From positions 1 to 56,979 of the forward strand of contig DAIUCF010000004.1 in assembly GCA_036846305.1 (NCBI GenBank): 56,979 nt of DNA. Reading direction: 5' to 3'. Origin of the DNA: Candidatus Poseidoniaceae archaeon (GTDB taxonomy: Archaea; Thermoplasmatota; Poseidoniia; Poseidoniales; Poseidoniaceae). This document shows, in pieces, positions 16,471 to 40,148 of this stretch (positions are counted from its first letter, which is position 1; each line of letters opens with the position of its first letter). Under the pieces are notes generated by a model. It was not told the DNA's origin, searched no databases, and worked only from the letters and a program-made list of their open reading frames with translations. Both the position numbers and the translations under genes were made by a program.

Positions 16471-16566
16471 GAACTGTTCTTTGTATCTGCTCTCAGATAA
16501 GAGTATTGACAATGAGTCAACGGTTGGAAGCGGAAAGAAGATGATTCACTTCTGCCTGGGCTGGCT

Positions 16567-25785: not shown

Positions 25786-27588
25786 CTAGACACCGAAAAT
25801 CGAAGATGCTGCTTCAAGGACAAGTGAGGTGATGTACGAGGTAATGCCCGCTACCCACAGTAATTGAATCCCTTGCCCCATTGCAGTCGTACGAATTCCA
25901 CCGCGTAAACGGTTCGAAATTATTGAAACCGCCATAACTTGAAACAGAATCAGGATTGAAACAATTATTTTGAACATACGGATATTTTCAGGAACACCAG
26001 AGGCATCCTCCATAACTGGAAGGGCTAAACCTGCCCCAAATTCAGTGAGTACAGAAACATCGGTATCAGTGAAATTGGACGCAACACCTGCAATGGAGTC
26101 ACCAAGTTTCAGGACAATGGCGATGGTGACGTTAAGACTTGTTACCGAGGCGATTAACAGACCAAGTGCGACACCTCGCATAGTGTTGGCAGAAAGCGCT
26201 CTTCTTCTGCGAAGAGAAAGTAGATTTCCTACTGAACGAGATACCATTTCTGCCGTATCGGCAGGCCTTCCAGACGACTGTGAGCCCTCAATATAAATTC
26301 GGGTGTAGCGGGAAATAACTGCAGAATTCGTATCAGCATTGAAATAATCCCATGCCCGATCGGAGTCAATTCGCGTAGAAAGACGCCTCTCAAGTCGATC
26401 GATTGAGCGATCAAGCATTCCGAAATCAATTCCTCTCAATGCCTTGATTGTCGCTGATGGTTCAGCAGAACGAGCTTGCGCAGTACCACCTAGAGCACGA
26501 ATGAAATCTGGATATGTTTCGTCACGTCGAAGAACTTGGCGCTCTTCTCTTGCAATCATGATTGATGGAATAAGTAGTGGTGAGAGAGGAGCGGCAATGA
26601 AAATCAATCCGTATCGGTCCCATTGGTTCGTTACGGCATCCCATGCTGATGCCAGGAGAAGGAACATGATGACCACCAAAAAACCAGTCAAAAGGGTCGA
26701 TGCAACGAGAGCCCGTAAGAAATTTATTCGGAAGGGTGTATCCATCTCATCTCGAGCGAAAGTCGGGTCCTCAGGTATCGTGGCTCTAAAGGCGAATACT
26801 GCTCCTACTTGGATAATAGTGAACATTAACGATGCCAGAAGAATGAACCGTAATCGACTTGCAACCATGATTGGTGTATCTGATGCAGAGCCGACCTCAA
26901 ACAAAACCAAATGAATTCCTGCAATGACGAGTCCGAACAATCCGGCAGACACCAGAGAAACATAAATTTCCTTCATCGTATCTACCGATTCAAGCCGAGT
27001 GTCGTACAAAGTTGAATACTGCTCAGCGACGGTTTCTTGCTCCGAGCGCATAAATTCATCAATAGGTTGACCAGCTTCAATTGAGAAAGCCATTCTGTCA
27101 AGGAAATCAGCCCATAAGGGGCTCGGACTTTGTTGTGCAACAATTCGTGATGCTTCGGGCAGCGAAGTATGCCATTTGTCCACTAGCGTTTCAATACGCT
27201 TAACTTCGTTGGCCAACTCACCATAATCACTCATTTGCTTAAGAATATCGAAAATTGATTGCGCACCAACTTCACCTAGAGATAAAATACCCATTCTCGT
27301 GATGAACATGTGCATTTCTTTTTCGATCATTGTAGCGGAACGTTGAACATCCAGCAATGGGAAGCCAGCTGCTGCTGCACCTGAAAGGACGGGCAAAAGA
27401 ATAATCAAAAGTATTCCAGCCGCACCTGAAAAGAGTGCCCCATCTGCTAAACCTCCAGTAAAAAATATGAGTATAATGGCGAGAAGTAGACCTGCAATTG
27501 CCGAACCACCAACATAGAACAACAGAAATTGTCCAACCGGAATCTCTACCCTTCGCAATGCGATTTGCCAGAAAGACATTCGCTGCAT
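25786..27588 (-). CDS. arlJ: Archaellum membrane platform protein ArlJ (FlaJ)
   Basis: 600-aa polytopic membrane protein with two cytoplasmic T2SS-F-like domains, lying immediately downstream of arlI, which is the canonical position. Confidence 0.85.
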   Translation of the reverse strand: MQRMSFWQIALRRVEIPVGQFLLFYVGGSAIAGLLLAIILIFFTGGLADGALFSGAAGILLIILLPVLSGAAAAGFPLLDVQRSATMIEKEMHMFITRMGILSLGEVGAQSIFDILKQMSDYGELANEVKRIETLVDKWHTSLPEASRIVAQQSPSPLWADFLDRMAFSIEAGQPIDEFMRSEQETVAEQYSTLYDTRLESVDTMKEIYVSLVSAGLFGLVIAGIHLVLFEVGSASDTPIMVASRLRFILLASLMFTIIQVGAVFAFRATIPEDPTFARDEMDTPFRINFLRALVASTLLTGFLVVIMFLLLASAWDAVTNQWDRYGLIFIAAPLSPLLIPSIMIAREERQVLRRDETYPDFIRALGGTAQARSAEPSATIKALRGIDFGMLDRSIDRLERRLSTRIDSDRAWDYFNADTNSAVISRYTRIYIEGSQSSGRPADTAEMVSRSVGNLLSLRRRRALSANTMRGVALGLLIASVTSLNVTIAIVLKLGDSIAGVASNFTDTDVSVLTEFGAGLALPVMEDASGVPENIRMFKIIVSILILFQVMAVSIISNRLRGGIRTTAMGQGIQLLWVAGITSYITSLVLEAASSIFGV

Positions 27589-27599
27589 TGGGAATCACC

Positions 27600-29318
27600 T
27601 TATTCGTGGTTTACTCCAGTCCATGTATCAACCGCTTTGTCAAAGTGATCCCAACCGTTGTTGTAGTAAAGTCCCAACAAGTCAAACACGTCGTCATAAT
27701 GAGTCAAATCGCGCTCAACCATTCGGTCAAGGGCTTCCGACCTTCTCATCATTTCGTCATAAATATCACGCTTATTTGAAAATCCAGCCATTGCTGCTAT
27801 CTTATTTTCAAGCAAGTGACTTTGGAACATTCCACGGAAGTAGTGCTTGTCTTTTACCGGATCCCACTCAAACATACCACGGGTAAGAACACCGTCACTG
27901 TGTTTATTGTATCCGATGACTTCGTCAATTCCCGTGACCCTACGAGCAATACCGCCTCCAGGTGCCTCAACCACTTCTTGGAAGATGGCAAAGTTCAAGT
28001 TGTCGAAAAATCGAATCGGGACATTGATTGGGTCGCCAGTAAATCTTTGAATCATTTTCACAATAGATGATGCGTGGAAGGTAGCAATTACTGGGTGACC
28101 AGTCTGCATTGCTTGGAATGCTGTTGCCCCTTCAACACCACGAATCTCACCGATAATGATGTATCGTGGACGGCTACGTAACGCTGCTTTCAATAAGTCG
28201 AACATTTCAACACGAGATTCTTCATTTTTCGAAGAACGAGTAACAAGTCGTTGCCATATTTTGTGTCGGACTTTGACCTCAGGCGTATCTTCAGCCGAGT
28301 AAATTTTGACGTTGTGATCGATGAAAGGTAAAATCGCATTGAGTGTCGTGGTTTTACCAGATGCTGTTTCCCCTGACACCAGAACGGACATTCCGTATTC
28401 AAGACAAATCCAAATGTAGGCTGCAACTTGTGATGAAATTGTGCCCCAAGCGATTAATTGCGTAATAGAAATGGTCTCTTCCGCAAACTTACGAATGGTG
28501 AATGACGGTCCAAGCATTGAGACATCGTCTGAGAATATGATATTGATACGAGATCCGTCAAGCAGTGCACCATCAATAATTGGTTTGTTATCAGAAACCG
28601 GACGACCGATTCTTTCTGACATCGCTCTTAAGAAACGAGAGAGCATTTCTCTCTCTCTAAATCGAATGTTCGAAGTAACCATCCCGAATACTTTGTGATC
28701 CATGTGGACATGCTTCAATCCAATCGAGTGAATATCTTCCAGCATCTCATCAGAAAGCAGCGGTTCAAGAGGGCCGTTTCGGATAAGGTCGCGTACCACA
28801 ATATAGCGAAGGCGTTCCCGTTGAGGGGCGGTAACAATCAACCGCTTGTCGTCCATGCCCATCATTTCCCAAAGACGACCCTGCCGGCGAACTGAAGTCA
28901 CTGCCTCAGTATCCAAGAGAGTGTAACGTTCAATCATCTGGGCAAGAATATTTTCGAATTCATCATCGGTAGTGAACGAAGGAGCTGTTGGTGCTTCTTG
29001 TAGCAGAGTTTCAATCAAACTTCGACGAATGTTTTCCTCTTCTTCGGACAGTTGGGGTTCCAAACCAAACCAAAGGACTTGGCCTCCACCCTCCTCATCC
29101 GCAGGTGGTTCGTAAATATGAACGAAAATCGGTTCTTTAGTAATGTAAATCAGATTAAGTGGTCGTTCTTTTTTGGCTCCACGGTCCAACTCACCATAGT
29201 AAATCGGACGAGAGCCATGGCTAGCCTCGAAATCTCGAACCCATTCGGCAACATGCGGGTGGGCATTCATGACCGAGTTAAGGTCACCTTTTGCGAATCG
29301 GGGCTCATCATTTACCAT
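27600..29318 (-). CDS. arlI: Archaellum motor ATPase ArlI (FlaI)
   Basis: Type II/IV secretion ATPase core: Walker A VSGETASGKTTTLNA, ...IYSAEDTPE..., Walker B/Asp-box ...RPRYIIIGEIRGVEGATAFQAMQTGH... Start placed at ATG 29318 (MVNDEPRF...); the track start at 29357 would overlap arlH by 26 nt. Confidence 0.95.
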   Translation of the reverse strand: MVNDEPRFAKGDLNSVMNAHPHVAEWVRDFEASHGSRPIYYGELDRGAKKERPLNLIYITKEPIFVHIYEPPADEEGGGQVLWFGLEPQLSEEEENIRRSLIETLLQEAPTAPSFTTDDEFENILAQMIERYTLLDTEAVTSVRRQGRLWEMMGMDDKRLIVTAPQRERLRYIVVRDLIRNGPLEPLLSDEMLEDIHSIGLKHVHMDHKVFGMVTSNIRFREREMLSRFLRAMSERIGRPVSDNKPIIDGALLDGSRINIIFSDDVSMLGPSFTIRKFAEETISITQLIAWGTISSQVAAYIWICLEYGMSVLVSGETASGKTTTLNAILPFIDHNVKIYSAEDTPEVKVRHKIWQRLVTRSSKNEESRVEMFDLLKAALRSRPRYIIIGEIRGVEGATAFQAMQTGHPVIATFHASSIVKMIQRFTGDPINVPIRFFDNLNFAIFQEVVEAPGGGIARRVTGIDEVIGYNKHSDGVLTRGMFEWDPVKDKHYFRGMFQSHLLENKIAAMAGFSNKRDIYDEMMRRSEALDRMVERDLTHYDDVFDLLGLYYNNGWDHFDKAVDTWTGVNHE

Positions 29319-29331
29319 ACATTCAACTCCA

Positions 29332-30072
29332 TCAGCTAACCGCCGTAATATCCACAATGAAGCCCATACCGGGCTCTACACGCCATCCAATAGATGTTTG
29401 AATTGGGCCTGCTGCTCGTAGGAATCGAGTGATAACAATATTTCGTTTTATCTCGCCACCGATCATTGCAGTCTGTAAATCCAAAACGACTTCCGCAGAT
29501 GATCGCATCGTGTGCATCAATTTGTGATCCATCTCTTCGGGGTCCACACACAACATGAGTGAACGACCTGAGGAACAAATCTGGCGTAACTGTTGCATTA
29601 ACAGGAAGCGATTTTTGTCATCAAGGTCGTAAGGCATTATTGAACTTGCAGAATCGATAATAACGACATCTGCAAGTTCGATAGCCTCTGACTGAAGCAA
29701 TTCTTGCAGACCTACATCGGGAATAGATTCAGCGATGGTACCAAAGCGACTGAACACCAAGAGGCGTCCATCACGAATAGCTTCGGTCACACCGTATCCA
29801 ATCGATTCCATCTGTTCAACCCAGCCTCGAGTGGTGAGTTCAGTCGTAATGACCAACACTTTGACTCCGTTTTCACTTAGACCATATGCTAGTCTTTGAG
29901 AAATTAATGACTTTCCGCCTCCAACCGCACCCTGCAATACATACAGCGAACGATTCGGTAATCGAAGACCCATTGAATCTGCAAGAGAATCTGTCTCCAA
30001 CTCATACGGGAATCCGTCTTCCTTTGGCTTGTGTGCCGTTAGGAAAGGATCTTCTTTGACAAAATCATCCAT
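29332..30072 (-). CDS. arlH: Archaellum RecA/KaiC-like ATP-binding protein ArlH (FlaH)
   Basis: Walker A LQGAVGGGKSLISQRL, a KaiC/RecA-like fold pattern (...VLVITTELT..., ...VVIIDSASS...), and the position between the F/G-like genes and arlI. Confidence 0.85.
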   Translation of the reverse strand: MDDFVKEDPFLTAHKPKEDGFPYELETDSLADSMGLRLPNRSLYVLQGAVGGGKSLISQRLAYGLSENGVKVLVITTELTTRGWVEQMESIGYGVTEAIRDGRLLVFSRFGTIAESIPDVGLQELLQSEAIELADVVIIDSASSIMPYDLDDKNRFLLMQQLRQICSSGRSLMLCVDPEEMDHKLMHTMRSSAEVVLDLQTAMIGGEIKRNIVITRFLRAAGPIQTSIGWRVEPGMGFIVDITAVS

Positions 30073-30565
30073 TCAAACGCACCTCCAAACCGAAACTTGC
30101 GCCACCGGTCATGCCCGAAACAGATTCTGACATTGCAGTCAAAAATATGCTAATATCATCATTATCAGAATACGTATTGAAAGCGGTATCTGAGAGAACA
30201 ATACTGAGTAAGCCATCAGGATTCCAATCGGTACCTCCTCCTACGACTGTTGTCGTAACTCCTGAGGAGGGGATTATTGCACCGTCAATCAAAATCTCAA
30301 TTTGAGTTCTATCCATCGGATGTTCGCCAGTGTTAAGAGCATAAAGCGTAATCTCATCTGGTGTAGGTACACGGTCAATATTCACATTCATCGGATCACC
30401 AGCAAAGTCTATGGAAAGTTCCTCAGAAAGTTGTAAGCCTCGTTGTTGTTGTTGTACAACGCGTGAGGCTGACGACCACTCCTGAATCAGTACTGCACTG
30501 GCTGAACTAGAGATGAGCAATGCGCTAATGAGCATAATGTACGTCGAAACTCCACCGTCAGCCAT
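30065..30565 (-). CDS. ArlF/ArlG-family archaellum stator-like protein (ArlG by position)
   Basis: 166 aa. Archaellin-like hydrophobic N-terminus (VSTYIMLISALLISSSASAVL) followed by a beta-rich domain. It has an 8-nt overlap with arlH. The assignment rests on operon position only. Confidence 0.6.
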   Translation of the reverse strand: MADGGVSTYIMLISALLISSSASAVLIQEWSSASRVVQQQQRGLQLSEELSIDFAGDPMNVNIDRVPTPDEITLYALNTGEHPMDRTQIEILIDGAIIPSSGVTTTVVGGGTDWNPDGLLSIVLSDTAFNTYSDNDDISIFLTAMSESVSGMTGGASFGLEVRLNG

Positions 30566-30574
30566 ACAAAAACC

Positions 30575-31276
30575 TCACAAAGCAGTCCTAACTAATGTCG
30601 TTGGCCCAACGGTAAATGCTAGCCTTTCGTATTCTGTATTACTGGTGGGGTTGTCATTCCAAAGCAATTCTAGAGTCTCGCCAGAGTACCAGTTACTGCT
30701 TGAACTTACAACTGCTGATGATGCCGAAAGAGTTTCAGGATCATCTCCGTCATAGAACACCCAAATTTCATCTGTGGATATTGTATCCGAACCAGAATTG
30801 GTTAGATTTGAGTAGATGTACTGACGGAAAACAGGTGCATCAAAGGTTGCGGTCGATGTTGGTGTTTGAACAGAGCCAGCCAAGTTAAGTATGGTCCATG
30901 TCGGGGTATTTGAATTCGGACAGTCGCCGTGGTTGGTGATAACCACGTTTCCGATATCAATTTCCCCTCCAGTAGTAGTGAACTGGGCTAAGAACCCTCC
31001 ACACTCATCGGAGCCAACATTTGCTCGAACAAATCCATCAACATAACCTGTGCCTCCATTTCCAGCGGAAATACTGAGTTCATGTATTGCAAACTGAGAG
31101 ATTTTTACATCGTCGATAGTAAAACTTGGGTCGGGGACAGAAGCACTCTCTATTGCATCCAAACCGGTTGCAACTTGAGCATCAAATGCTGTGATGGCCA
31201 TTGAGAACACCACCAACATCGAAATCCCAATAATGAGACCTCCTATTCCGACCGAAGCGCCCATTTCAGAGTTCAC
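30575..31276 (-). CDS. ArlF/ArlG-family archaellum stator-like protein (ArlF by position)
   Basis: 233 aa. N-terminus GASVGIGGLIIGISMLVVFSMAITAF resembles the archaellin hydrophobic segment, followed by a beta-rich domain. The assignment rests on operon position only. Confidence 0.55.
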   Translation of the reverse strand: MNSEMGASVGIGGLIIGISMLVVFSMAITAFDAQVATGLDAIESASVPDPSFTIDDVKISQFAIHELSISAGNGGTGYVDGFVRANVGSDECGGFLAQFTTTGGEIDIGNVVITNHGDCPNSNTPTWTILNLAGSVQTPTSTATFDAPVFRQYIYSNLTNSGSDTISTDEIWVFYDGDDPETLSASSAVVSSSSNWYSGETLELLWNDNPTSNTEYERLAFTVGPTTLVRTAL

Positions 31277-32111
31277 CTCGAAGTGACTTTACGCTTCGCC
31301 AAGAACTTATCAGAGAGGAAAACACGAGAAGTTCCTTGTGTGAAAGGTGGTCCTCGAGAGCTGCCTCTGATTCGCCAGGAGCTGCAAGTTGAACAATGGC
31401 CAAAACCTCTCGACCTTCTTGTTCGTTCAACATCCCTGAAGCCATCGCCTTCTGAGTGAAACTGACAGCTGCCATACCCGACATACTGTCGAGTAAGAGG
31501 GCAGAAACTGTCGGCGCACCTACTTGATTCGCATTTGTTGTCGCACCTGAAGAAGGTGCATGCAAAAATGGATTCGCAGCAAGTGCTTGAGCTTCATACA
31601 GTTCAACCAATGGGGCTTCATCTACAGCTTTCAAACGTTCCGAGCCAGAAGCAGGGATAACTTCGCCACTTGCCGTGACAATCATATCTCCACTCTGAGT
31701 CGAATCATTGCCCAACAATTCAGAATCTACTGGGTTGCCTTCTGCGTCCGTCGATTGGTTCACTGCTGGTGAATCGAGTCGAACTTCGACCATCCGCAGT
31801 ACGTCCTCGACCATGTCGAGGCGACTGCTGATCAAACGCTCAAGCCCTGATGTGTCAACCGTAGTGTTCTGTGGAACAGCTGCGGCTGGAGCAAGAGTTG
31901 CTGCAACCGTTGGAACACTTCCAACACTGTTCATTCGAGCTCTGGTCGGACTTGGACTTATCGTCCAAGCATCATCTTCACTCAACTCGCCTTCCTCTGG
32001 TAGCGGAACTTGTTCAATGGCGATATTCGCCATAATTTTCAGTCGTTCCTCTGTAAGGTCTGCATCTGCGTCACGATTTTTATCTGCGTTACCGCTAAAT
32101 GGCCATGCCAT
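31266..32111 (-). CDS. Hypothetical acidic, Ala/Ser-rich soluble protein occupying the ArlC/D/E slot of the archaellum operon
   Basis: 281 aa with no TM. GGAGG lies 7 nt upstream of the ATG, and the ORF overlaps the next gene by 11 nt. I recognise no ArlC/D/E or ArlX signature. Confidence 0.5.
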   Translation of the reverse strand: MAWPFSGNADKNRDADADLTEERLKIMANIAIEQVPLPEEGELSEDDAWTISPSPTRARMNSVGSVPTVAATLAPAAAVPQNTTVDTSGLERLISSRLDMVEDVLRMVEVRLDSPAVNQSTDAEGNPVDSELLGNDSTQSGDMIVTASGEVIPASGSERLKAVDEAPLVELYEAQALAANPFLHAPSSGATTNANQVGAPTVSALLLDSMSGMAAVSFTQKAMASGMLNEQEGREVLAIVQLAAPGESEAALEDHLSHKELLVFSSLISSWRSVKSLRGEL

Positions 32112-32166: not shown

Positions 32167-32826
32167 TCAGATAACGGCAGAACCTGCAGTTGTAGAATCA
32201 ATCGATAGAGTCTCGTAAGTTGTACCGCCGTTTCCAACGTGAAGGTACAACTCAACTGTTGAGTCTCCACTGTCTGGACTGCAATCTTGAGTTCCAGTAA
32301 CAGCTCCTCCACCGTCAGCATCAATCCACAGAACGTATCCAGTGGAAGGTTGCATGATTCCGGTGTTTTCATCCAAAAGAGTTGGAGGTTCAGTGTTGGT
32401 ATCCATCAATGAAACCTCTCCGTCGTTGGTTAGAGCGCCACCTGCATCAGGGTCGCCAACGGTTCCTTCACGGACACCGTTGTCACAGAACAACTGGAAT
32501 GTGATCTGGTTCAATGGCGCAGGATCGCTACCAGGTGCCAGACGCACGAAGAATTGGTACGCTTCAGTTGCAGTAAATGCAGCTGGAGCACCGCCGTTAC
32601 CGCCTCCGGCAACGAATCCTTGCTGAATGAGAATCTTACCTGCCATGTTATCGGCGGTATCATCACCAGTCGTTTGGGCGTTCTGTTGCAATTTTTCAGC
32701 AGTCTGAATAATCACAGCAGCAGCAACCGCAGCAACCAAAATCAGTGCGATGAATACAATCATTGCACCAATACCAATTGCAGCGACTTTGTCGTGTTGA
32801 ATTTCGTTACGAGTGTTTGGCTTCAT
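32167..32826 (-). CDS. arlB: Archaellin (ArlB/FlaB), paralog 2
   Basis: Class III signal peptide and conserved hydrophobic N-terminus: MKPNTRNEIQHDKVAA/IGIGAMIVFIALILVAAVAAAVIIQTAEKLQQNAQTTG. It has a 4-nt ATGA overlap with paralog 1. Confidence 0.9.
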   Translation of the reverse strand: MKPNTRNEIQHDKVAAIGIGAMIVFIALILVAAVAAAVIIQTAEKLQQNAQTTGDDTADNMAGKILIQQGFVAGGGNGGAPAAFTATEAYQFFVRLAPGSDPAPLNQITFQLFCDNGVREGTVGDPDAGGALTNDGEVSLMDTNTEPPTLLDENTGIMQPSTGYVLWIDADGGGAVTGTQDCSPDSGDSTVELYLHVGNGGTTYETLSIDSTTAGSAVI

Positions 32827-33383
32827 ATGACTTTCGCCCCCGCTGAAACATCCGCACCGTAGTTCAAAACTTCGTAAGTGAAGCCACCTGCACCGGATTG
32901 AATTGCAAGTGTGTGGTCTTGGTTAGCAGTTGGAGCACATTGAGTCAAATCGCCAGCAGGAGCAGCGGTTAGAACGACATCGTATGTAGATCCAGGGCTA
33001 AGTGGGTTGACTGCTGCTTGAGCGCCAACGACTGTTGCTGTTGCAAAGTTGCCGTAATCAGCACCGCCAGCGCACACAATAGCCCAGTCGACATTCGCTG
33101 GGTTAATTGGGTCCGAACCTGGGGCCAATTCAAAGGTCAAGTACAATGCACCTGCAGATGGAATAATGACGTTCTTAATTACCACCTTAGATGATAACAA
33201 AGAGGTCGTTTCCTCACCCGTTGTCTGTGCATTCTGTTGCAACTTTTCTGCGGTTTGAATAATAACCGCTGCCGCAACCGCTGCAACAAGGATAAGGGCA
33301 ATGAAAACAATCATTGCACCTATACCAATTGCAGCGATATTATCGCTATTTTCTTTCTTATTTTCTTTCATTTTTTTCACCAT
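32823..33383 (-). CDS. arlB: Archaellin (ArlB/FlaB), paralog 1
   Basis: MVKKMKENKKENSDNIAA/IGIGAMIVFIALILVAAVAAAVIIQTAEKLQQNAQTTG. The 40-aa N-terminal core is identical to paralog 2, while the C-terminal globular part differs. Confidence 0.9.
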   Translation of the reverse strand: MVKKMKENKKENSDNIAAIGIGAMIVFIALILVAAVAAAVIIQTAEKLQQNAQTTGEETTSLLSSKVVIKNVIIPSAGALYLTFELAPGSDPINPANVDWAIVCAGGADYGNFATATVVGAQAAVNPLSPGSTYDVVLTAAPAGDLTQCAPTANQDHTLAIQSGAGGFTYEVLNYGADVSAGAKVI

Positions 33384-33427
33384 TTTTTCTTAGTAATCCC
33401 CCACTATGTGGGTGGAACGTGATTGAG

Positions 33428-34534
33428 TCAGGAAGCGCCTCCTGAACTCATAGTAATGCGAAGTGGCATTCGAATTATCGCCACTTCGTCTGGAGCAAGG
33501 CGTTCCACAAAGGGAACTGAGTCGGAGGTATATCCCGGAGGAAACCAAGGTGAGAGTAGGATATCAGAAAGTGGCTCCATTGAGCGGTTTTGTGCACGGA
33601 TAGTAACAAACACTTCGCCAGTACGGATTTCATAGCCAGTAGTAACTGCCAACTTTCGGGACAGTGGGATTTCGTCAGCCCCATATCGTCGATTCGCAGA
33701 GACATTAAAACGAACGGGGAGGTTCCCACCTGGAGCGATAGTAGGGAGGTCAACACATGATGGTGTCGATTCCCAACCTTCAGGTACTGGAGGAGAAAGG
33801 CGCATTGGTGGCATTGCTACAGGCCCATCATTGATGATACGTATGACAAGTACGCCCACGTCACCGCCTGCTGGCCATCGTGTTTCGAGCCCCATCCAAA
33901 AATGGCGGAACAAGAATGGGTTGAGGGTTGAAGTATTGCCTCCAATAAGGTCGTCAACTAAGAATTCTACTTCACCAGCAGCACCGCCAACATCACCAAT
34001 TTCAGCGGCGCCAGTCGCACTGCGTAATCGCAAGAGAATGGTTTCAATATCGCGTTCGCTAATTTTCTTTTGACTGAGAAGTCTATGTAGCATTGCAATG
34101 TTTCTCCTCAAATATAGAACATCTTCTTCTAAATCAAGGAGGGATGTTTCTGCTTTGGAAACACTTGAAAGGGCCTTACCAAGCTTGTGACTCTGAAGGT
34201 AATCTTTGGCAACTCCGATTTCAAGTTCAGTTCCTGCTAATGAATTGGTATCGTCCAGAGAAATTCCAAGAACCATCGACTCCAGTTCTCTTGGCAAAGC
34301 TGCAGATGCAGCCTCTTCCTGTACCTGGCCAAGCGATTCCGAGGCATCTGGAGCAGCCTCGTCGATGTCCGAAGATGCATTCTCTGATTCCTGAGCCGGT
34401 GAACCTGAACCATTGCCGTCCGACTCAACACTCGAAACCGAAGGGGCTTCAACAGGGCTTTCATCCTCAAACTGAGGCATTTCATCAAGTGTCTTTACTT
34501 CGGAGGCAGGATCAATGAACTCGTCATCAGACAT
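33428..34534 (-). CDS. Hypothetical protein: acidic disordered N-terminus, helical middle, C-terminal beta-sandwich-like domain
   Basis: Start placed at ATG 34534 (MSDDEFIDP...). It overlaps the stop of the upstream giant gene as ATGTCTGA and has GGAGGTG 7 nt upstream. C-terminal signature ...VLVIRIINDGPVAMPPMRLSPPVPEGWES...APGGNLPVRFNV... There is no signal peptide or TM. Confidence 0.55.
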   Translation of the reverse strand: MSDDEFIDPASEVKTLDEMPQFEDESPVEAPSVSSVESDGNGSGSPAQESENASSDIDEAAPDASESLGQVQEEAASAALPRELESMVLGISLDDTNSLAGTELEIGVAKDYLQSHKLGKALSSVSKAETSLLDLEEDVLYLRRNIAMLHRLLSQKKISERDIETILLRLRSATGAAEIGDVGGAAGEVEFLVDDLIGGNTSTLNPFLFRHFWMGLETRWPAGGDVGVLVIRIINDGPVAMPPMRLSPPVPEGWESTPSCVDLPTIAPGGNLPVRFNVSANRRYGADEIPLSRKLAVTTGYEIRTGEVFVTIRAQNRSMEPLSDILLSPWFPPGYTSDSVPFVERLAPDEVAIIRMPLRITMSSGGAS

Positions 34535-37500
34535 CTTCGGCCACCTCCTCTTGAGTAATTCCGTTTTCAGGAAGGGTCGACTGTGAAGGGTCGACGACGC
34601 CAAAGATATCGTCTAGGTTCAGTTTCTCGTTCGCCAATTCGTTGAACAAACGGGCTGGGTCGCTTAAATCTCTCTCGATTCGAATAGCCTTAACTTCAAT
34701 GTCCGTGAGGCGGCCATAGAGCGTACCGTACATCGAGTTAGCACGTCCGATGAGATACCATACACCCAACATGACTACTGCGATGTAAACAACTAGGCTC
34801 ACGATGTTGGCCCTGTTCTCAGTGAGCATCGGCGGTAACCCAAGTACCACTGAAAGCATACCAAGAACTGGAACCGCCAATATGATTGTGAGTTGCTTTC
34901 GAGCCTTGCCAAGTTCTTCAAAGTGGTCGGCATACAGCGTAGAAATACCTCGGCGAGCACGTTGATAATCTTCGTGCAGTAATCGGAACTCTTCTGTACT
35001 CTTCCAACTCATCCTCCAAATCCAAAGCGCTGCTAAAGCAAGCACTACAAAGCCCCACCAGATGAATTGGAACAAATGGAAGGCAAATCCAAATCCAAGA
35101 ACCCCTGAATAAATCCCAAGCAATCGGAAATTATCGTTCTGTGCTGTAAGCCTAAACAGGATGATTGAAACCAATAGACAGGTCACCGAAGCAACGAAAC
35201 TGTTGGAGACACCTGGCGACCAAGAAATTACATCTTCCTTAAGCGTCATTTGGTCATTCTTCTCAACGTTATCTTTCATGAAACTCGCGTTCACGGTTGC
35301 AACACAACTCACTTCTGAACGTTGATTCCACCAGTCGATTGAATCAGCAGTAACTGTCCAGGTAAACGACCTTTCTTCGGTAGCGAAGAAGAACGGTATC
35401 ATGGAGTAGTTTAGTCCTGTTGAAACTGAACGGTTGAGGAGCGCAGGTCGCTCACTCGGCAAATCTGAAACGGTCAATCCATCACATTCCAAATCAACGA
35501 CCACGTCTAATGCAGTAGCAGAGCCTACATTTTGGACAACAACGGTAATGGTGCTCTTGGTGCCTTCCTTGAAACCATCCTCGCCAGAGGATATGCTTTT
35601 GATCATCGGGTCAGCAAACACGGCTAGTTCCAGTGTAAATGTCTCCTCATCATAATTAGTAAACAGGTTGTTTTCAGTCGGATGGTAGAGTCTAAAGGTC
35701 AAGTCCCAGCCGTCTCCGGGTAGAATCTTTCCTTTCGTTGGCGTTTCTGCTTGAATCCTAATTGTCGAAGGGTTCCATGCATCCAGCTCAAGAAGAGTGA
35801 ATCGTGATGTTGGACCCAGCGAAGAAGTGCCGCATTCTTGTTCCAAATCGAGTTTGTGAGTGTCGCTGGTGCCATCTGCATTATCGACAACGAGTGTGAA
35901 ATTCCATGAATATTCGAATTCAGACAATCCCATTGCTGGTAAATTGAGAAGACGTTCTGAATCACATAATTCAACCATGTAGGCGGCTTTGGAACCGTTC
36001 CCTGTTGGGATGTTGGTGTATGGGAGGAGAACATCAACAACATCACCGTCGATGTCAGGCTCAATTCCGATATCTCCAGTCGAGAAGAATCTTGACATAA
36101 CGAGTTGTGTCTTGAATTCACCTTCACCCTCAACAGCTGTGTCTGTTGGGTCAAGGAACAACGTCAAATCTGCAGTGAGTGAAAGAAGTGGGAAGTCAAC
36201 TGTACCTTGGACTGTGAATGTGTGAACGACTGGGGTATTACGTGGCAATGAAATAACGGTTGGTTGAGTAATCATCGTCCAATCCGTCGATAGATTCGTA
36301 AGACCGGGCCTTGTAATGGCATATACAGCGTTGACCGATACATCTTTGTTACCGGTGTTGGTCAAAGTAACCTCCCACGTACGGGTTGATGTTGGTTGGA
36401 ATTCCATTACGTCAGGCCAATCGCTCGATTCGACGATGAATAAGGGTTGAACTTGAAGTTGCACATTGCGAGAGAGGTATTCTTTGCCACTGGTTGCGTT
36501 CATTGCAGTTATAGTGAGGTTGTAAACTGAGCCTTCAACAAGCGAATCGGTGCCGCCCAAACTAGGTATGCTGACAATAACCGAATCAGCATATTTCCCA
36601 TCGATTGGAATCGTCTTGGTCAGTTGATACTGAGAAAGAGTCAAGTTTCCTTCAACACTCAAATTAATGGAAACTGTTTCTTGCAAGTTACCTAAATTTT
36701 CAATTTCGAAGTCTACACTTTCCTGCAACCCCGGGGTCACGGCAATAAGTTCTGGAGCCGTTATACCAATAGAGTGGTTTTCAGAGATATTTGCAACGAT
36801 GTTTGAAGAGAGAAGAATTTGCCCGTTATTAGTTGAAACCCAAACTGTACACATGTAAAATCCATCAGAGTTCGCATTCGAATTCGCAATCATCTCGATT
36901 TGTATGGTTTCTTGGTAGCCAGCAGCAATGAATAAACTTCCACTGCTCGGAGATTCGAGTTTGAAATCTACATCCCCAGCTTGTGAATTATCGAGCCAAA
37001 TTGTGTAATCAGTTGGTGCATTTCCAGTATTGACGACCTTTATGGTAGTGAAAGTGGATTCGGAAATATCAAGATCCAGCGATTGGTTGGTTGGGGTTAG
37101 ACTGCCGTTGAAAATCTGCCCAACAACAACGTAAAACACATGCACATCGCCAATTAACTGTCCAGAGAAGGGATCTTCAATTCGCACGGAAATTGGCTGA
37201 TTGAGACCAGCAGGAGCCAATGGGTCAGTCTTGATATTGAACGAGATGAATTCGATGTGTTCGTTGTTCGAACCAAATTCACCATCGAGTTCTCCATCGG
37301 ATATGTCAGATGTGAGATTGGTGATGTTGGTATCGGCCTCACTGAAATTTGCAGTCCAGTTTTCAGGAAGGTCATTCACCACACGTAAGCGATAAGAACC
37401 AACATCGTTGCCCGTGTTGGCAAAACGCATCGGTACCGTGGTGTCAACACCTACAGGAATGTCGTAAGGGCCTGAGTCAAGGAATTCGCCATCGATGAGA

Positions 37501-39617
37501 GGCGGGATAATTAGAGTGTAATTTCGAGTTAATGTTTCGGCCGCCACACCGCTACCTTGTAGCGCCGGGCTAAGGGTAGGAGTGATGGTGATTGAAGCAG
37601 AGAAGGTTCCGGCAACCGGATACTGATTGGCTTGAGGCCCGATGATGTCAAGTGTAGTCGTAGCGCTGTCACCGGGTGTTAAACCGGTGTAAAGCGGGTT
37701 AGAAACACTCACAGACCAACGGTCCGCTTCACTGAAACCGCCTTCATTGAGGGCAGTGAAACTCTTACCAGTGGTAATTGTTGCATCGAGGGTCTCGCTC
37801 AGCATAGTGGGTAGATTGTGAATTACTCGGAGGTTGAGGTCGATGTTTCGAACAAGTTGTGTACCGGTGAGGGTTTGTTGGATTTCCTCATTCGGAATTA
37901 CTTCTGGAACAGGGTTAAGTCCGGGGTCGACAACAATTACGGGAGATACTTCGATGGGTGCTGTGTCTTGTGATGGGACACCACCACCGAGCGGTTGGCA
38001 TTGAATCCAAACATCAAGCGCGTCACCCGCCATGTTGTATTCGCTGGTTACGATTGGATTCTGAATCGCTGGAGCTGTGAGGGTCACGGTAACTTGAGTC
38101 GTTTGCCCCGAGGATACTGGAGGGGTAATCGATGGTGCGACCTCCCAGGTCCAATTCAAGGTCGAAACAGAAAGGCCAGTGTCCAAGGAGTATGTCGTGG
38201 TCACGCTACCGGTATTTTCGACCACAGCGATGAATTGAGCAGTCCCACCAGGGGAGATTTTCTTCGTGGTCGCAGGTTCGACAAGATCAACAGTGCCTTG
38301 GAAGAAATCACCTACCATGACTCTGCCAACTCCACTGATTTCGTATTTATCTGGAGAATCCACTGATGTGAACGTTATGACGATTTTATCGGTTTCCGAA
38401 CGTACTGCAGTTGTTGGCACATCCACATCGAGTGTAACCAAACGTACCGAACCTGCCGGTAGCGTAGCTCCGAAGGATGCAGAGGTTTCATCAGCCCATG
38501 GTTTGTTTTGAGTAACTGAAATCGTGAACAGGTCTGATTTAATACCGGTATTCTTGACAACAAATGTAATTGCCGTGGAATCACCAGGTTCGACAACTAG
38601 AGTAGCAGGTTCAATGACAATCGCATTGTAGTCTGAAAATTTAATCCACGATTCTTTGACAACGACCGTTTCATCCCATGCGGTTCCGTCAAACTTGACT
38701 GATGCAGAAATATTCCACACCCCCGTCAATGTCGTAGAGTCAACGTTTGCGCTTAGAACGCCTGACTCTTGAATTGTTCCTGCTGAAGGTGGATATGAGC
38801 CAGGTTGTAGAAGCACAGTATTGGAGACAAAATTGAGAACGGTTGCGGGTGTCGAGTTGTCCCTCAGTGTAATGGTCATCGTAGCAGATAGAGGCTTTAC
38901 TCCAGAATTCGTAACCGTTGTGTTGAGGGCAGTGACCGCATTAGGCAATGCCATTCTGTTGGTTGACGGGGTTACATCAGGGAAGGTGTTGGTCATCAGT
39001 TCCCCAAAGTGCTTATTTTCTACAGAAAAAGACAGCCCGAGGTCCTGATAATTGTTCAAGAGAGCATTGCCAGCCTCTTTGGATGAGACGATTTTGACCC
39101 TTAATTCTTGACCTGCTCCGTTAGTAGCATTCCACGAGAAAGAAATGGGGGCAATGTCAACTTGAGCAGAGGCGCTACTTACCGTACCCATGGAGATGGT
39201 CGTCACGTCATTGAATGTCAGTGAAGGGGATCCTTTGTGTTGGAGAACCAACCACAATTCATCACTACCGGAGCCGGTTGCAGATACGTTGACCGTGACG
39301 ATGTGTTCCCCTGGCTCGAGGTACATCGAAGCCCCGATGACTGCTGAACCGGAATTGCTGAGTTGAAGTGGGTCTCTAAAGTAAAAATCAAGTACAGAGC
39401 GGCCTGAAGTAGTTGTTTCATTTTCAGAATCACCAGCGCCTACAAGCGGCAAGTACATTGGGACGACGAAAAGCAATACAAGCAGGCTTGCTAGTGCCGA
39501 TTTACGAGATACAGCATTAAGCAGAAGAGCCACCTCCTGGAGAGTCAAATCGAGCGATAGTGACTTTCTTACCTTGACGGCGCCATTGAAGGAGGAGTTG
39601 CTCAAGGAGTCGCTCAT
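34527..39617 (-). CDS. Giant (1,696 aa) envelope protein: N-terminal signal-anchor, multiple CARDB/NEW3-like beta-sandwich repeats, C-terminal 5-TM block plus cytoplasmic tail
   Basis: Repeated signatures: VKNTGIKSDLFTISV, VENTGSVTTTYSL, FANTGNDVGSYRLRV, VVNTGNAPTDYTIWL, IENLGNLQETVSINL, LTNTGNKDVSVNAVY, VQNVGSATALDVVVDL. Many N-x-S/T sequons. C-terminal helices FVASVTCLLVSIILFRL, LLGIYSGVLGFGFAFHLF, IWWGFVVLALAALWIW, LTIILAVPVLGMLSVVLGL, IVSLVVYIAVVMLGVWYLIG. The start is ambiguous (see findings). Confidence 0.8.
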   Translation of the reverse strand: MSDSLSNSSFNGAVKVRKSLSLDLTLQEVALLLNAVSRKSALASLLVLLFVVPMYLPLVGAGDSENETTTSGRSVLDFYFRDPLQLSNSGSAVIGASMYLEPGEHIVTVNVSATGSGSDELWLVLQHKGSPSLTFNDVTTISMGTVSSASAQVDIAPISFSWNATNGAGQELRVKIVSSKEAGNALLNNYQDLGLSFSVENKHFGELMTNTFPDVTPSTNRMALPNAVTALNTTVTNSGVKPLSATMTITLRDNSTPATVLNFVSNTVLLQPGSYPPSAGTIQESGVLSANVDSTTLTGVWNISASVKFDGTAWDETVVVKESWIKFSDYNAIVIEPATLVVEPGDSTAITFVVKNTGIKSDLFTISVTQNKPWADETSASFGATLPAGSVRLVTLDVDVPTTAVRSETDKIVITFTSVDSPDKYEISGVGRVMVGDFFQGTVDLVEPATTKKISPGGTAQFIAVVENTGSVTTTYSLDTGLSVSTLNWTWEVAPSITPPVSSGQTTQVTVTLTAPAIQNPIVTSEYNMAGDALDVWIQCQPLGGGVPSQDTAPIEVSPVIVVDPGLNPVPEVIPNEEIQQTLTGTQLVRNIDLNLRVIHNLPTMLSETLDATITTGKSFTALNEGGFSEADRWSVSVSNPLYTGLTPGDSATTTLDIIGPQANQYPVAGTFSASITITPTLSPALQGSGVAAETLTRNYTLIIPPLIDGEFLDSGPYDIPVGVDTTVPMRFANTGNDVGSYRLRVVNDLPENWTANFSEADTNITNLTSDISDGELDGEFGSNNEHIEFISFNIKTDPLAPAGLNQPISVRIEDPFSGQLIGDVHVFYVVVGQIFNGSLTPTNQSLDLDISESTFTTIKVVNTGNAPTDYTIWLDNSQAGDVDFKLESPSSGSLFIAAGYQETIQIEMIANSNANSDGFYMCTVWVSTNNGQILLSSNIVANISENHSIGITAPELIAVTPGLQESVDFEIENLGNLQETVSINLSVEGNLTLSQYQLTKTIPIDGKYADSVIVSIPSLGGTDSLVEGSVYNLTITAMNATSGKEYLSRNVQLQVQPLFIVESSDWPDVMEFQPTSTRTWEVTLTNTGNKDVSVNAVYAITRPGLTNLSTDWTMITQPTVISLPRNTPVVHTFTVQGTVDFPLLSLTADLTLFLDPTDTAVEGEGEFKTQLVMSRFFSTGDIGIEPDIDGDVVDVLLPYTNIPTGNGSKAAYMVELCDSERLLNLPAMGLSEFEYSWNFTLVVDNADGTSDTHKLDLEQECGTSSLGPTSRFTLLELDAWNPSTIRIQAETPTKGKILPGDGWDLTFRLYHPTENNLFTNYDEETFTLELAVFADPMIKSISSGEDGFKEGTKSTITVVVQNVGSATALDVVVDLECDGLTVSDLPSERPALLNRSVSTGLNYSMIPFFFATEERSFTWTVTADSIDWWNQRSEVSCVATVNASFMKDNVEKNDQMTLKEDVISWSPGVSNSFVASVTCLLVSIILFRLTAQNDNFRLLGIYSGVLGFGFAFHLFQFIWWGFVVLALAALWIWRMSWKSTEEFRLLHEDYQRARRGISTLYADHFEELGKARKQLTIILAVPVLGMLSVVLGLPPMLTENRANIVSLVVYIAVVMLGVWYLIGRANSMYGTLYGRLTDIEVKAIRIERDLSDPARLFNELANEKLNLDDIFGVVDPSQSTLPENGITQEEVAEDV

Positions 39618-40026
39618 GGACGAGATCCGATATGCCGAGGCGACGGCGTTCCTCCCAAAGCAACATTTGTTCTGTCTTGGTTAACAACGCATCTCGTAAA
39701 TAGAGTTCAAGAGTGCGTCGGTAAGCGTCTCGGTCGGAGACTGCATAGACAATGGTGTCTCCAGGCAACTGGTCCGCACGGTTTTGTATAAGGTTGCCAA
39801 GCGTAAGTGCTTCGTCGTAAGTCAAGTTTCGTTTGTCAAGGTCAGTCTGTACTGAACTGGCGATTGTCTGAAGGTCAAATCGAGTGTTTGAGCGCTGAAT
39901 CTGCTTTGAGTAGCGCCGACATCTACGAGACATGCGAGCCGCCACCATACTTGCTGATGAAACCCGCCGGTTATTGAAAGAATCGGTCAATATGGGCGGT
40001 TTAACCCACATCGATATCAAAACCAC
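39517..40026 (-). CDS. Hypothetical basic/helical cytoplasmic protein (up to 169 aa)
   Basis: GTG start in the track; ATG alternatives exist at 40011 and further downstream. Its 3' end overlaps the first 101 nt of the giant ORF in another frame. No motif recognised. Confidence 0.4.
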   Translation of the reverse strand: MVLISMWVKPPILTDSFNNRRVSSASMVAARMSRRCRRYSKQIQRSNTRFDLQTIASSVQTDLDKRNLTYDEALTLGNLIQNRADQLPGDTIVYAVSDRDAYRRTLELYLRDALLTKTEQMLLWEERRRLGISDLVHERLLEQLLLQWRRQGKKVTIARFDSPGGGSSA

Positions 40027-40148
40027 CCATAATGCATAAAAGGCTCGCTAAATGGCATATCCCATTGATAAAGTGTTAATTTTTTAACTTTAGAAGCCAA
40101 ATATGGGTAAAAGCAATCCTTCATGTCCTTGAAGTGTTTGGAAAGTTC

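Follow-up and report, generated by a model that had tools for sequence, protein, structure and literature searches.

The archaellum gene cluster of Candidatus Poseidoniales (Marine Group II archaea) is best explained as beginning, at its 5′ end, with a module of three genuine, conserved genes. Two of them, encoding a giant surface protein and a 368-aa protein that its junction sequence marks as translationally coupled to the giant, probably specify an undescribed membrane-spanning accessory part of the archaellum machine, a function suggested by genomic context. A first-pass annotation of the window (the whole 56,979-nucleotide stretch analysed here) had pointed to three co-directional ORFs directly 5′ of two archaellin genes, and this arrangement stands:

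39963–39987, minus strand: conserved non-coding element ACCGATTCTTTCAATAACCGGCGGG, 15–39 nt upstream of the small-gene ATG
39517–39948, minus strand: small basic protein, 143 aa, start ATG 39948 (the ORF reaches GTG 40026)
34527–39533, minus strand: giant surface protein, ~1,668 aa, start GTG 39533 (the ORF reaches ATG 39617)
34737–35216, minus strand: C-terminal block of five transmembrane (TM) helices in the giant (hydropathy scan; residues ~1468–1627, numbered from ATG 39617)
34530–34736, minus strand: tail of the giant, ~70 aa, putatively cytoplasmic (alignment A7, distant loci L081–L089)
34527–34550, minus strand: coupling junction, with Shine-Dalgarno sequence GAGGAGGTG at 34542–34550 and stop/start overlap ATGTCTGA at 34527–34534
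33428–34534, minus strand: 368-aa protein, taken as cytoplasmic (alignments A1 and A2)
Residues ~1–75 of the 368-aa protein: variable, acidic, disordered N-terminus
33941–34300, minus strand: five-helix domain of the 368-aa protein (residues ~79–198)
Between the five-helix domain and the Ig-like sandwich: invariant linker LNPF.FR.FW
33452–33904, minus strand: Ig-like β-sandwich of the 368-aa protein (residues ~211–361)
33397–33416, minus strand: conserved stem-loop UCC-A-CCCAC/AUA/GUGGG-GGA in the spacer from the 368-aa gene to arlB1
32823–33383, minus strand: arlB1 archaellin (Pfam Arch_flagellin, E 3e-21), probable start ATG 33371
32167–32826, minus strand: arlB2 archaellin (Pfam Arch_flagellin, E 5e-21)
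31266–32111, minus strand: 281-aa protein in the ArlC/D/E position
30575–31276, minus strand: arlF (Pfam/NCBIfam)
30065–30565, minus strand: arlG (Pfam/NCBIfam)
29332–30072, minus strand: arlH (Pfam/NCBIfam)
27600–29357, minus strand: arlI (Pfam/NCBIfam)
25786–27588, minus strand: arlJ (Pfam/NCBIfam)

With ArlF, ArlG and a protein in the ArlC/D/E position, nothing is obviously missing from the cluster downstream of the module. The order small basic protein, giant, 368-aa protein, arlB1, arlB2, 281-aa protein, arlF, arlG, arlH, arlI is kept in 80/80 species-level loci of the Poseidoniaceae, as far as each contig extends. Over all of the loci examined, the giant/368-aa pair lies immediately 5′ of archaellin in ~90 out of ~90, to the same extent; where the contig shows it, this includes relatives whose 368-aa protein is only 26–30% identical, a Thalassarchaeaceae cluster among them. 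In these distant loci the large upstream gene abuts the 368-aa start or overlaps it by up to 8 nt, a complete arl set follows wherever the contig is long enough, and the outer neighbours of the module differ from those in the window. It is only the pair that is order-wide: the small protein is present in L001–L080 and L091, and is absent upstream of the giant in the Thalassarchaeaceae-type loci L086–88 and L090. The order proposed at first pass, which placed the small gene before giant, 368-aa protein and arlB, thus holds for the Poseidoniaceae loci and loses its first member in the Thalassarchaeaceae-type ones. Its lineage specificity was rightly anticipated, the module being found in Poseidoniales only, and occurrence of the module away from arl genes, named then as evidence that would count against an archaellum link, was seen in 0 cases for the 368-aa family in the loci read.

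The module is on the same strand as the archaellum genes, contiguous with them and in lineage-conserved order, and no canonical promoter or terminator intervenes, so that the whole is a candidate for co-transcription. Neither consensus was found in the 44–56 nt 5′ of arlB1, in agreement with the earlier remark that no convincing BRE/TATA precedes this gene; a terminator-like site was likewise not found there. The spacer of 44 nt given at first pass is correct to the first ATG of arlB1 and becomes 56 nt if translation begins at the second, 33371, which its sequence makes the most likely start: it is preceded by a conserved GGTGA, and GGTGA-N5-7-ATG recurs in all loci. Conserved order and the lack of a separating promoter or terminator leave the tests that the first-pass annotation had set against itself, where run, in its favour. 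Within the spacer, a hairpin stands ahead of an A-rich tract, GGTGA and, last, the start of arlB1. Folding predictions give this hairpin as the optimum for nearly all 76 distinct Poseidoniaceae spacers, the few exceptions having a related stem in the same place, and its mean z-score against shuffles is −3.1. Its inner stem covaries (AC/GU, AA/UU, GC/GC, UC/GA; also CAGCCC/GGGCAG), RNAalifold retains 4 base pairs, of which 2 show compensatory changes, and the best Rfam matches reach 9–18 bits against thresholds of 50–110, with none over 33397–33416.

At the other end of the module, the small protein has 523 homologues, mostly of 143 aa, all annotated as hypothetical and all from Poseidoniaceae/Poseidoniales; its start was corrected to ATG 39948 from an initial call of 169 aa (39517–40026). 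A coding reading of the 78 nt upstream of this ATG was rejected, as a conserved non-coding element lies there. ACCGATTCTTTCAATAACCGGCGGG is near-invariant across Poseidoniaceae loci, amid flanking bases that vary and carry indels, and its conservation explains the seemingly conserved translation TDSFNNW in longer ORF calls. At −31 to −23, TTTCAATAA occupies the TATA-box position for a leaderless transcript; the element probably serves the unit as promoter or operator, a promoter role being suggested purely by position. The protein has an Arg-rich N-terminus and a highly conserved core (SDRDAYRRTLELYLRDALLT.TEQ.LLWEERRRLGI), with 79 invariant columns in alignment A3 and 28 Lys + Arg versus 19 Asp + Glu residues. 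It is taken as cytoplasmic because no TM segment is predicted, and it gave no match to Pfam, the PDB or any known family. As the probably leaderless first gene behind the promoter-like element, it would be an extra of the Poseidoniaceae lineage, acting as a regulator or assembly factor.

The giant also begins later than initially proposed (1,696 aa from 39617). Stop codons interrupt this frame further upstream in many related loci, and usable starts cluster at the small-gene stop, which places the start near GTG 39533, abutting that stop; the apparent 101-nt overlap with the small gene is thus an artefact of ORF extension. A signal-anchor with a 35-aa cytoplasmic head, as the longer reading implied, was rejected and replaced by the classical n-h-c signal peptide that the corrected start provides (…LPLVGA↓GD), which from its sequence is probably cleavable. 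Canonical signal peptides also open the giants of L090 and L091; the Thalassarchaeaceae-type giant of L086–88 is an ORF without one.

About 12 Ig-like β-sandwich domains make up the ~1,400-aa ectodomain of the giant, an acidic protein with 27 N-x-S/T sequons and 21.5% Ser + Thr. All seven h-x-N-x-G motifs listed at first pass are present (residues 354, 466, 732, 861, 972, 1085 and 1361), and the pattern [VILFM]xN[TSLV]G matches 9 times, against 0.88 ± 0.91 (maximum 5) in 2000 shuffles. The CARDB and NEW3 profiles suggested alongside them both exceed their Pfam cut-offs, at residues 342–406 for NEW3/NPCBM_assoc (31.2 bits, cut-off 24.4) and 1342–1426 for CARDB (22.8 bits, cut-off 22.7). In having one domain of each family and nine copies of the signature, the giant resembles CARDB/NEW3 surface proteins; these are fold families, not functions, and such arrays are equally typical of adhesins. 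Residues 279–1648 align with a Thalassarchaeaceae-type protein of 1,363 aa at 25% identity (E 1e-84).

The hydropathy scan bears out the five C-terminal TM helices and ~70-aa tail described earlier, with a basic ~40-aa loop joining TM3 to TM4. This block, which has no Pfam or PDB match, is conserved order-wide (alignment A7), at 47–91% identity versus 30–87% for the ectodomain. Because the number of helices following the exported ectodomain is odd and the TM3–TM4 loop is basic, the tail, with its conserved YG.LYG.LTDIEVKA.RIERDL.DPARL and an acidic end, is predicted to be cytoplasmic. Two further giants are encoded in the window, one of 1,713 aa and one of 2,398 aa that carries a TSP_3 repeat; both have single-pass anchors and were rejected as paralogues, being unrelated. 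The only polytopic giant in the window is the one adjacent to the arl genes. Across loci, exposed parts evolve fast (the giant ectodomain, arlB, arlF/G) and the TM block, the 368-aa protein (60–85%), the small protein (60–90%), ArlH and ArlI are conserved, a gradient that fits the proposed topology.

The stop of the giant does overlap the next start, as had been noticed, through ATGTCTGA with GAGGAGGTG upstream. Of 84 loci, 61 share this 8-nt overlap and most of the others have different small overlaps or gaps; distant loci, too, can overlap by 4–8 nt, and 6 of the 8 junction classes listed show a Shine-Dalgarno motif. The 368-aa protein has more than 642 homologues, all hypothetical, and its family is tiny, forming just 61 clusters at 50% identity among 1.84 billion (1.84e9) representative proteins and, in the loci read, confined to an arl context. 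Its first description, with an acidic N-terminus, no TM segment and a C-terminal domain bearing the same signature, agrees with the hydropathy scan and Pfam: residues rich in Asp, Glu and Ser fill the variable N-terminal region (59 acidic versus 29 basic residues overall), and the protein is taken as cytoplasmic because no TM segment is predicted. The C-terminus of the window protein scores 22.0 bits against Pfam NPCBM_assoc (NEW3), cut-off 24.4, and several orthologues (P0004, P0005, P0007, P0014) carry a recorded PF10633 annotation. An AlphaFold2 model of residues 75–368 (mean pLDDT 82.3, pTM 0.71) confidently predicts a helical bundle followed by an Ig-like sandwich. Foldseek returned only generic Ig/PapD/ASH-like matches to it, with TM-scores up to 0.24, and the helical domain matches no known family. 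The sequence, just short of the NEW3 cut-off in the window protein, and the modelled sandwich recall the CARDB/NEW3 surface proteins, among which it is unusual for such an Ig-like domain to occur in a protein that has neither signal peptide nor TM segment.

None of the three proteins reaches a curated arl cut-off, in line with the original view that the module lies outside the described arl set. The small and 368-aa proteins match no Pfam/NCBIfam model for ArlC/D/E, ArlF, ArlG or ArlX at E up to 0.1, the giant gives a fragment match to ArlG of 18.6 bits (cut-off 110), and no homology or structural match to a motor component was found for any of the three.

In other archaea the task of fixing the motor is attributed, outside, to the S-layer together with ArlF/G and, inside, to ArlX or ArlCDE/polar cap. 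The role proposed here, holding the motor still, resembles that of the ArlF/ArlG stator, the ArlX ring and ArlCDE, and the module genes share a putative operon with such components; however, the Poseidoniales cluster has its own ArlF/ArlG, and the module proteins match none of ArlF, G, C, D, E or X above threshold. ArlX combines an N-terminal TM segment with a coiled coil and ArlCDE has no membrane anchor (PMC8978795), whereas here anchor and cytoplasmic part are two coupled proteins. Conserved unannotated genes of this region are already known: the 'putative MGII motility operon' of Tully 2019 (PMC6336850, Fig. 4) includes several orthologous hypothetical proteins syntenic with FlaGHIJ and flagellins, with flanks conserved in MGIIa. 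Organisms and region are the same, the identity of the three genes with those shown is not certain, and the account of that operon does not describe protein topology, coupling, phyletic limits or a possible role. Multi-Ig proteins are likewise known from other archaeal loci, as S-layer-like products of Thermococcales/Methanococcales archaellum and type IV pilus loci (arCOG05057; Makarova et al. 2016, PMC4858521; bioRxiv 10.64898/2026.04.22.720090). By published description rather than sequence comparison, they are, like the giant, large, exported, built of several Ig-like folds and encoded in archaellum/pilus clusters, and a putative action on the envelope around the filament has been proposed for them. 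The giant differs in its conserved five-helix C-terminal anchor, cytoplasmic tail and coupled partner; in their passages on these proteins, neither paper mentions an anchor of this kind or a coupled partner.

The giant might instead work as a contact sensor or adhesin whose expression is regulated together with that of the archaellum, without being a structural part of the motor; this reading is less likely on balance but a serious rival. The Ig-rich ectodomain would bind particles or algal surfaces, anchor and partner would relay contact inward or merely hold the adhesin, and archaellum and adhesin would be co-expressed since both serve attachment. The CARDB/NEW3-type domains and fast-evolving ectodomain agree with this, transmembrane signalling would be well served by a conserved multi-pass anchor that has its own cytoplasmic partner, and Rinke et al. 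make the case for adhesion as the function of MGII archaella, chemotaxis genes not having been found (PMC6461757). However, the window's other large surface proteins are single-pass and away from arl genes, so adhesins here need neither such an anchor nor synteny; adjacency to arlB spans a deep two-family split, >0.9 Ga ago (Fan et al.), which is unusually strict for co-regulation; and profile and Foldseek searches detected no signalling domain in the 368-aa partner.

We regard as very improbable a general S-layer-like envelope protein with its own cytoplasmic assembly factor, beside the arl genes for purely historical reasons. Signal peptide, many Ig-like domains, sequons and acidic Ser/Thr-rich composition would fit, as would a weak match to the NCBIfam 'putative S-layer protein' (NF033506), which at 22.4 bits lies far under its cut-off of 110. 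Against it, the partner family is tiny and turned up beside archaellins only, and the five-helix anchor is unlike the single C-terminal TM segment or lipid anchor that, to our knowledge, attaches archaeal S-layer proteins. Half of the Thalassarchaeaceae genera have no archaellum operon (Rinke, PMC6461757), yet would need the envelope protein.

It is just as doubtful that the 368-aa protein belongs to the ArlC/D/E or ArlX class (cytoplasmic ring/switch) as a displaced, strongly diverged member, with the giant a mere tether. In Thermoplasmatales, arlC and arlD lie between arlB and arlF (PMC12448462), a position where Poseidoniales have one gene; 2 of 9 members of that gene's 281-aa family show a faint FlaC_arch signal, and the 368-aa protein, taken as cytoplasmic, has long helices and an invariant NPF(L) motif in common with the 281-aa protein, but it matches no arl model even at E 0.1 and hhalign gives the two families a probability of 1.8%.

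Tentatively, at a likelihood a little short of even, we favour the giant/368-aa pair as a transmembrane scaffold, accessory to the archaellum and specific to this order. The anchoring of ArlF/G in Thermoplasmatota that have no S-layer is recognised as an unsolved problem (PMC12448462). Points against this reading are that nothing is obviously missing from the arl set, that none of the three proteins matched a motor component, that CARDB/NEW3 arrays suit adhesins equally well, that the giant of L086–88 opens without a signal peptide, and that a search on whether Poseidoniales possess an S-layer yielded nothing either way. In such a scaffold, the giant would be exported through its signal peptide and display its dozen or so fast-evolving Ig-like domains on the outside, while its conserved five-helix bundle would hold it in the membrane with loop and tail facing the cytoplasm. 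The 368-aa protein, synthesised together with the giant through translational coupling, would stay in the cytoplasm, where its helical bundle or Ig-like domain would most likely bind that loop or tail. Presumably located at the motor, this membrane-spanning accessory complex may give the archaellum a fixed point on either side of the membrane, or may organise the surrounding envelope.

The window carries, on the minus strand, a complete archaellum cluster of the euryarchaeal type, and three ORFs lie immediately upstream of arlB1 on the same strand, as the first-pass annotation had described: those of a small basic protein, a giant protein and a 368-aa protein (hereafter the partner). The features of the region, in the direction of transcription, are:

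39963-39987, minus strand: 25-nt non-coding element shortly before the small-gene ATG, almost invariant across Poseidoniaceae loci
34527-39533, minus strand: giant gene
33428-34534, minus strand: gene of the 368-aa partner
33397-33416, minus strand: stem-loop UCC-A-CCCNN / loop / N'N'GGG-(A)-GGA, found in the same place in Poseidoniaceae loci L001-L080
32823-33383, minus strand: arlB1 as annotated
32167-32826, minus strand: arlB2
31266-32111, minus strand: gene of a 281-aa protein
after the 281-aa gene, minus strand: arlF, arlG, arlH and arlI
25786-27588, minus strand: arlJ

Relatives of the partner were detected in 169 species genomes by a genome-collection scan, and 80 loci were read. The contigs with close relatives are named Candidatus Poseidoniaceae or Candidatus Poseidoniales, i.e. 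Marine Group II (MGII), and include the original MG-II genome (CM001443.1, locus L030). As far as each contig extends, the order small protein, giant, 368-aa protein, arlB, arlB, 281-aa protein, arlF, arlG, arlH, arlI is kept in 80 of 80 loci. Searched exhaustively with a profile, 1.84 billion representative proteins yielded only 61 clusters of the partner family, many of them fragments; full-length distant members are 26-45% identical. In all seven of the distant clusters looked up, a large gene abuts the start of the partner gene or overlaps it by at most 17 nt (at most 8 nt in six of them); an annotated archaellin comes next in five, the other two contigs being too short to identify the downstream gene, and the whole arl set is also present where the contig is long enough. 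By annotation, one of these clusters belongs to Candidatus Thalassarchaeaceae and another to Candidatus Poseidoniales. The outer neighbours are a peroxiredoxin, a hexapeptide transferase and a flavin reductase in the window, and a primase and an unrelated protein in the distant locus L090; the co-travelling unit is the giant/partner pair plus the arl genes. Literature on the corA inversion and on MGII transcription yielded nothing on the locus.

Identity of the products to their counterparts in the window
Giant, ectodomain: 30-87%
ArlF/G: 35-90%
Archaellins: about 40-90%
Giant, C-terminal transmembrane (TM) block: 47-91%
368-aa partner: 60-85%
Small protein: 60-90%
281-aa protein: 64-90%
ArlH/I: 70-97%

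This gradient is the pattern that would be expected if the ectodomain, the archaellins and ArlF/G were exposed and the remaining products were cytoplasmic or embedded in the membrane.

The seven hydrophobic-x-N-x-G motifs originally quoted for the giant are all present, and the protein contains nine matches to this signature, against 0.9 expected and a maximum of five in 2000 shuffled sequences. NEW3 (residues 342-406) and CARDB (residues 1342-1426) domains both exceed their Pfam cut-offs, and, from the way the motifs are spaced, some dozen Ig-like domains would be present. The C-terminal block also stood up to re-examination: three of its five hydrophobic helices precede a basic loop of ~40 aa, two follow it, and the protein ends in a tail of ~70 aa. 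The N-terminus has to be redrawn: in many related loci the frame holds stop codons upstream of the small-gene stop, and candidate starts cluster across loci within ~40 nt of that stop, corresponding in the window to GTG 39533. The giant start abuts the small-gene stop, and the 101-nt overlap reported between the two genes is, judged from these aligned frames, an artefact. Read from GTG 39533, the giant opens with a classical signal peptide (...SRKSALASLLVLLFVVPMYLPLVGA|GD) in place of the signal-anchor proposed earlier, and textbook signal peptides are also found in the giants of distant loci L090 and L091; because its N-terminus is a signal peptide, the giant is probably anchored in the membrane by the C-terminal block only.

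Two other giant ORFs are encoded in the window, at 9316-16512 (minus strand; 2,398 aa, with a thrombospondin type 3 repeat) and 49760-54901 (minus strand; 1,713 aa, without a Pfam match). Each has a hydrophobic segment at its N-terminus and only one TM helix, at the C-terminus, so that the polytopic anchor is particular to the arl-linked giant; a paralogous relationship was rejected, there being no match at E up to 0.01. In Thalassarchaeaceae-type locus L086 (1006-5097; also L087 and L088), the giant is 1,363 aa long, and its alignment to the window protein starts at residue 279 of the latter. Neither a signal peptide nor an N-terminal hydrophobic segment was found in the L086 ORF, and a divergent beta-rich gene lies 36 nt upstream of it; the locus may be rearranged, or the gene split.

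The overlap of the giant stop with the partner start (ATGTCTGA) and the upstream GAGGAGGTG are as first reported, and the partner gene overlaps the giant stop in 61 of 84 loci. The acidic N-terminus of the partner is variable and missing from the most distant members; in the core of the protein, 150 columns are invariant across 13 Poseidoniaceae sequences. A first AlphaFold2 run with 13 close homologues was poor (pLDDT 52) and was set aside; once the alignment had been deepened and diversified with distant members, the core was modelled with a mean pLDDT of 82.3 and a pTM of 0.71 as a run of five helices that precedes an Ig-like sandwich. Foldseek against the PDB retrieved only generic Ig/PapD/ASH-like sandwiches with a TM-score of at most 0.24 (transglutaminase barrels, HYDIN/CEP192-type domains and Caf1M), and no function was taken from these matches; PDB sequence profile searches with the family gave nothing significant. 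A recent origin of the sandwich by duplication of one of the giant's domains was also rejected, as the best matches, to a single sequence, had E 0.01-0.05. Source annotations call all module proteins "hypothetical protein", with the sole exception of a JGI "chaperonin cofactor prefoldin" label in one distant cluster. This branch (cluster P0260, with P0319-P0321; L082; L090:10001-11038) has an insertion of ~60 aa in the helical domain; the name was judged to reflect this coiled-coil insertion rather than function, and is probably due to the inserted helical stretch.

A second unannotated protein of the archaellum cluster is the 281-aa product encoded at the ArlC/D/E position between arlB2 and arlF. 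It is conserved across the order (L090:11818-12633, L091:11746-12528 and L083:2647-3462 among the distant loci) and matched no arl family, except for a faint FlaC_arch signal in two of nine members (E 0.05). An invariant N-P-F-(L) follows a helical segment in both of these unannotated cytoplasmic proteins, the partner (residues 204-213, ~33896-33925) and the 281-aa protein (residues 180-183, ~31563-31574), and is the only stretch aligned between the two families; because the probability of the profile comparison is 1.8%, we do not read this alignment as homology, and the residues may constitute a shared short binding motif.

Between the partner stop and arlB1, the stem-loop lies 12-20 nt after the stop; next come an A-rich tract, whose length varies, and the GGTGA-ATG of arlB1. 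The same structure is the predicted fold in nearly all 76 distinct Poseidoniaceae spacers (mean z-score -3.1), with compensatory changes in its inner stem that covary between genera, and no Rfam family matched it. GGTGA lies 5-7 nt before the ATG in all loci, matching the second ATG of the window at 33371, whereas the annotated start (ATG 33383) overlaps the conserved GGTGA (site 33369-33383); since the other loci place GGTGA-ATG there, we corrected the arlB1 start to 33371, which the alignment indicates to be the true one. Neither a promoter nor a terminator consensus was found in the spacer with sigma-70-type promoter and intrinsic terminator models, a scan that is uninformative for an archaeon. 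The A-rich tract was rejected as a TATA box of arlB1: its distance to GGTGA-ATG varies between 21 and 47 nt, and in many loci is too short. For this reason the simplest reading would be that upstream transcription continues into arlB1 and that the hairpin serves in processing or stabilisation of the RNA; the stem-loop is possibly such an RNA element or a regulator site.

The small protein had been given as 169 aa, but its homologues are mostly called at 143 aa and their alignment opens at MVA.RMSRR, corresponding to ATG 39948; what precedes this ATG is a conserved non-coding element rather than codons. It is present in Poseidoniaceae and L091, and missing upstream of the giant in L086-L088 and L090. 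A TerB-like or HTH reading of its LT.TEQ.LLWEERRRLGIS stretch was considered and dropped, as no search supported it. Within the 25-nt element, TTTCAATAA occupies positions -31 to -23 relative to the ATG, which by general archaeal promoter geometry we infer to be the TATA-box position for a leaderless mRNA; the element is thus placed like the BRE/TATA of a leaderless transcript, yet is conserved far beyond basal promoter needs. A second motif, CCTTTTATGCATTATGGG, at 40026-40043 is conserved as well; this TTTATGC motif, ~60 nt further upstream, may be part of the peroxiredoxin gene that reads divergently.

When Pfam, NCBIfam and PDB sequences were searched with single sequences and profiles of the small protein, the partner and the TM block, nothing beyond NEW3/CARDB was matched; since homology gives no function, it is argued here from context and anatomy. 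The two genes have kept their place directly ahead of the archaellin genes, and their coupling to each other, since before the split of the two MGII families, dated to more than 0.9 Ga ago (Fan et al.); it combines an exported Ig-array on a polytopic anchor with a conserved cytoplasmic partner; and the partner family has been seen nowhere else. All three point to an order-specific, membrane-spanning accessory complex of the archaellum as the most likely identity of the pair. Giant and partner would then provide the motor with a fixed scaffold or anchor, or organise the surrounding envelope. Three published points bear on this favoured role: how the stator is anchored in S-layer-less Thermoplasmatota lacks an explanation in the field (PMC12448462), no membrane anchor is present in ArlCDE and the proteins of the cytoplasmic anchor and the polar cap are not known (PMC8978795), and S-layer-like multi-Ig proteins are recorded in archaellum loci of other orders, in the excerpted text of two sources (PMC4858521; bioRxiv 10.64898/2026.04.22.720090).

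Nearly as plausible is a co-expressed adhesin or contact sensor. Rinke et al. (PMC6461757) favour an adhesive role of MGII archaella, and whether these serve for swimming or for attachment only is presented as debated in excerpts of PMC6461757 and PMC6336850. It seems to us rather unlikely that the pair defines an unrecognised structural class of archaellum component, in which an external Ig-domain scaffold, linked across the membrane to the cytoplasmic motor ring, would resist torque in an archaeon without a rigid S-layer, or in which a contact brake or clutch would stop the filament on meeting a particle, in a lineage without a chemotaxis system. A general envelope protein and a displaced ArlC/D/E-like protein are less likely readings.

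Conserved hypothetical genes in the MGII motility operon are mentioned in excerpts of Tully 2019 (PMC6336850). What is new here is the definition of the giant/partner pair, with an accessory 143-aa protein in the Poseidoniaceae lineage, its strict, order-wide arl linkage, the combination of its polytopic anchor with a cytoplasmic helical/Ig partner that is coupled to the giant, and the two conserved non-coding elements. In the uncultured Marine Group II, which Rinke et al. (PMC6461757) describe as the most abundant archaeal plankton of the surface ocean, the locus supplies two defined protein families (three in Poseidoniaceae) together with these elements, and an order-wide, strictly arl-linked, membrane-spanning gene pair that is a concrete candidate for the missing motor anchor; if the pair were only a co-expressed adhesin, it would still mark what the cells display alongside their archaella.
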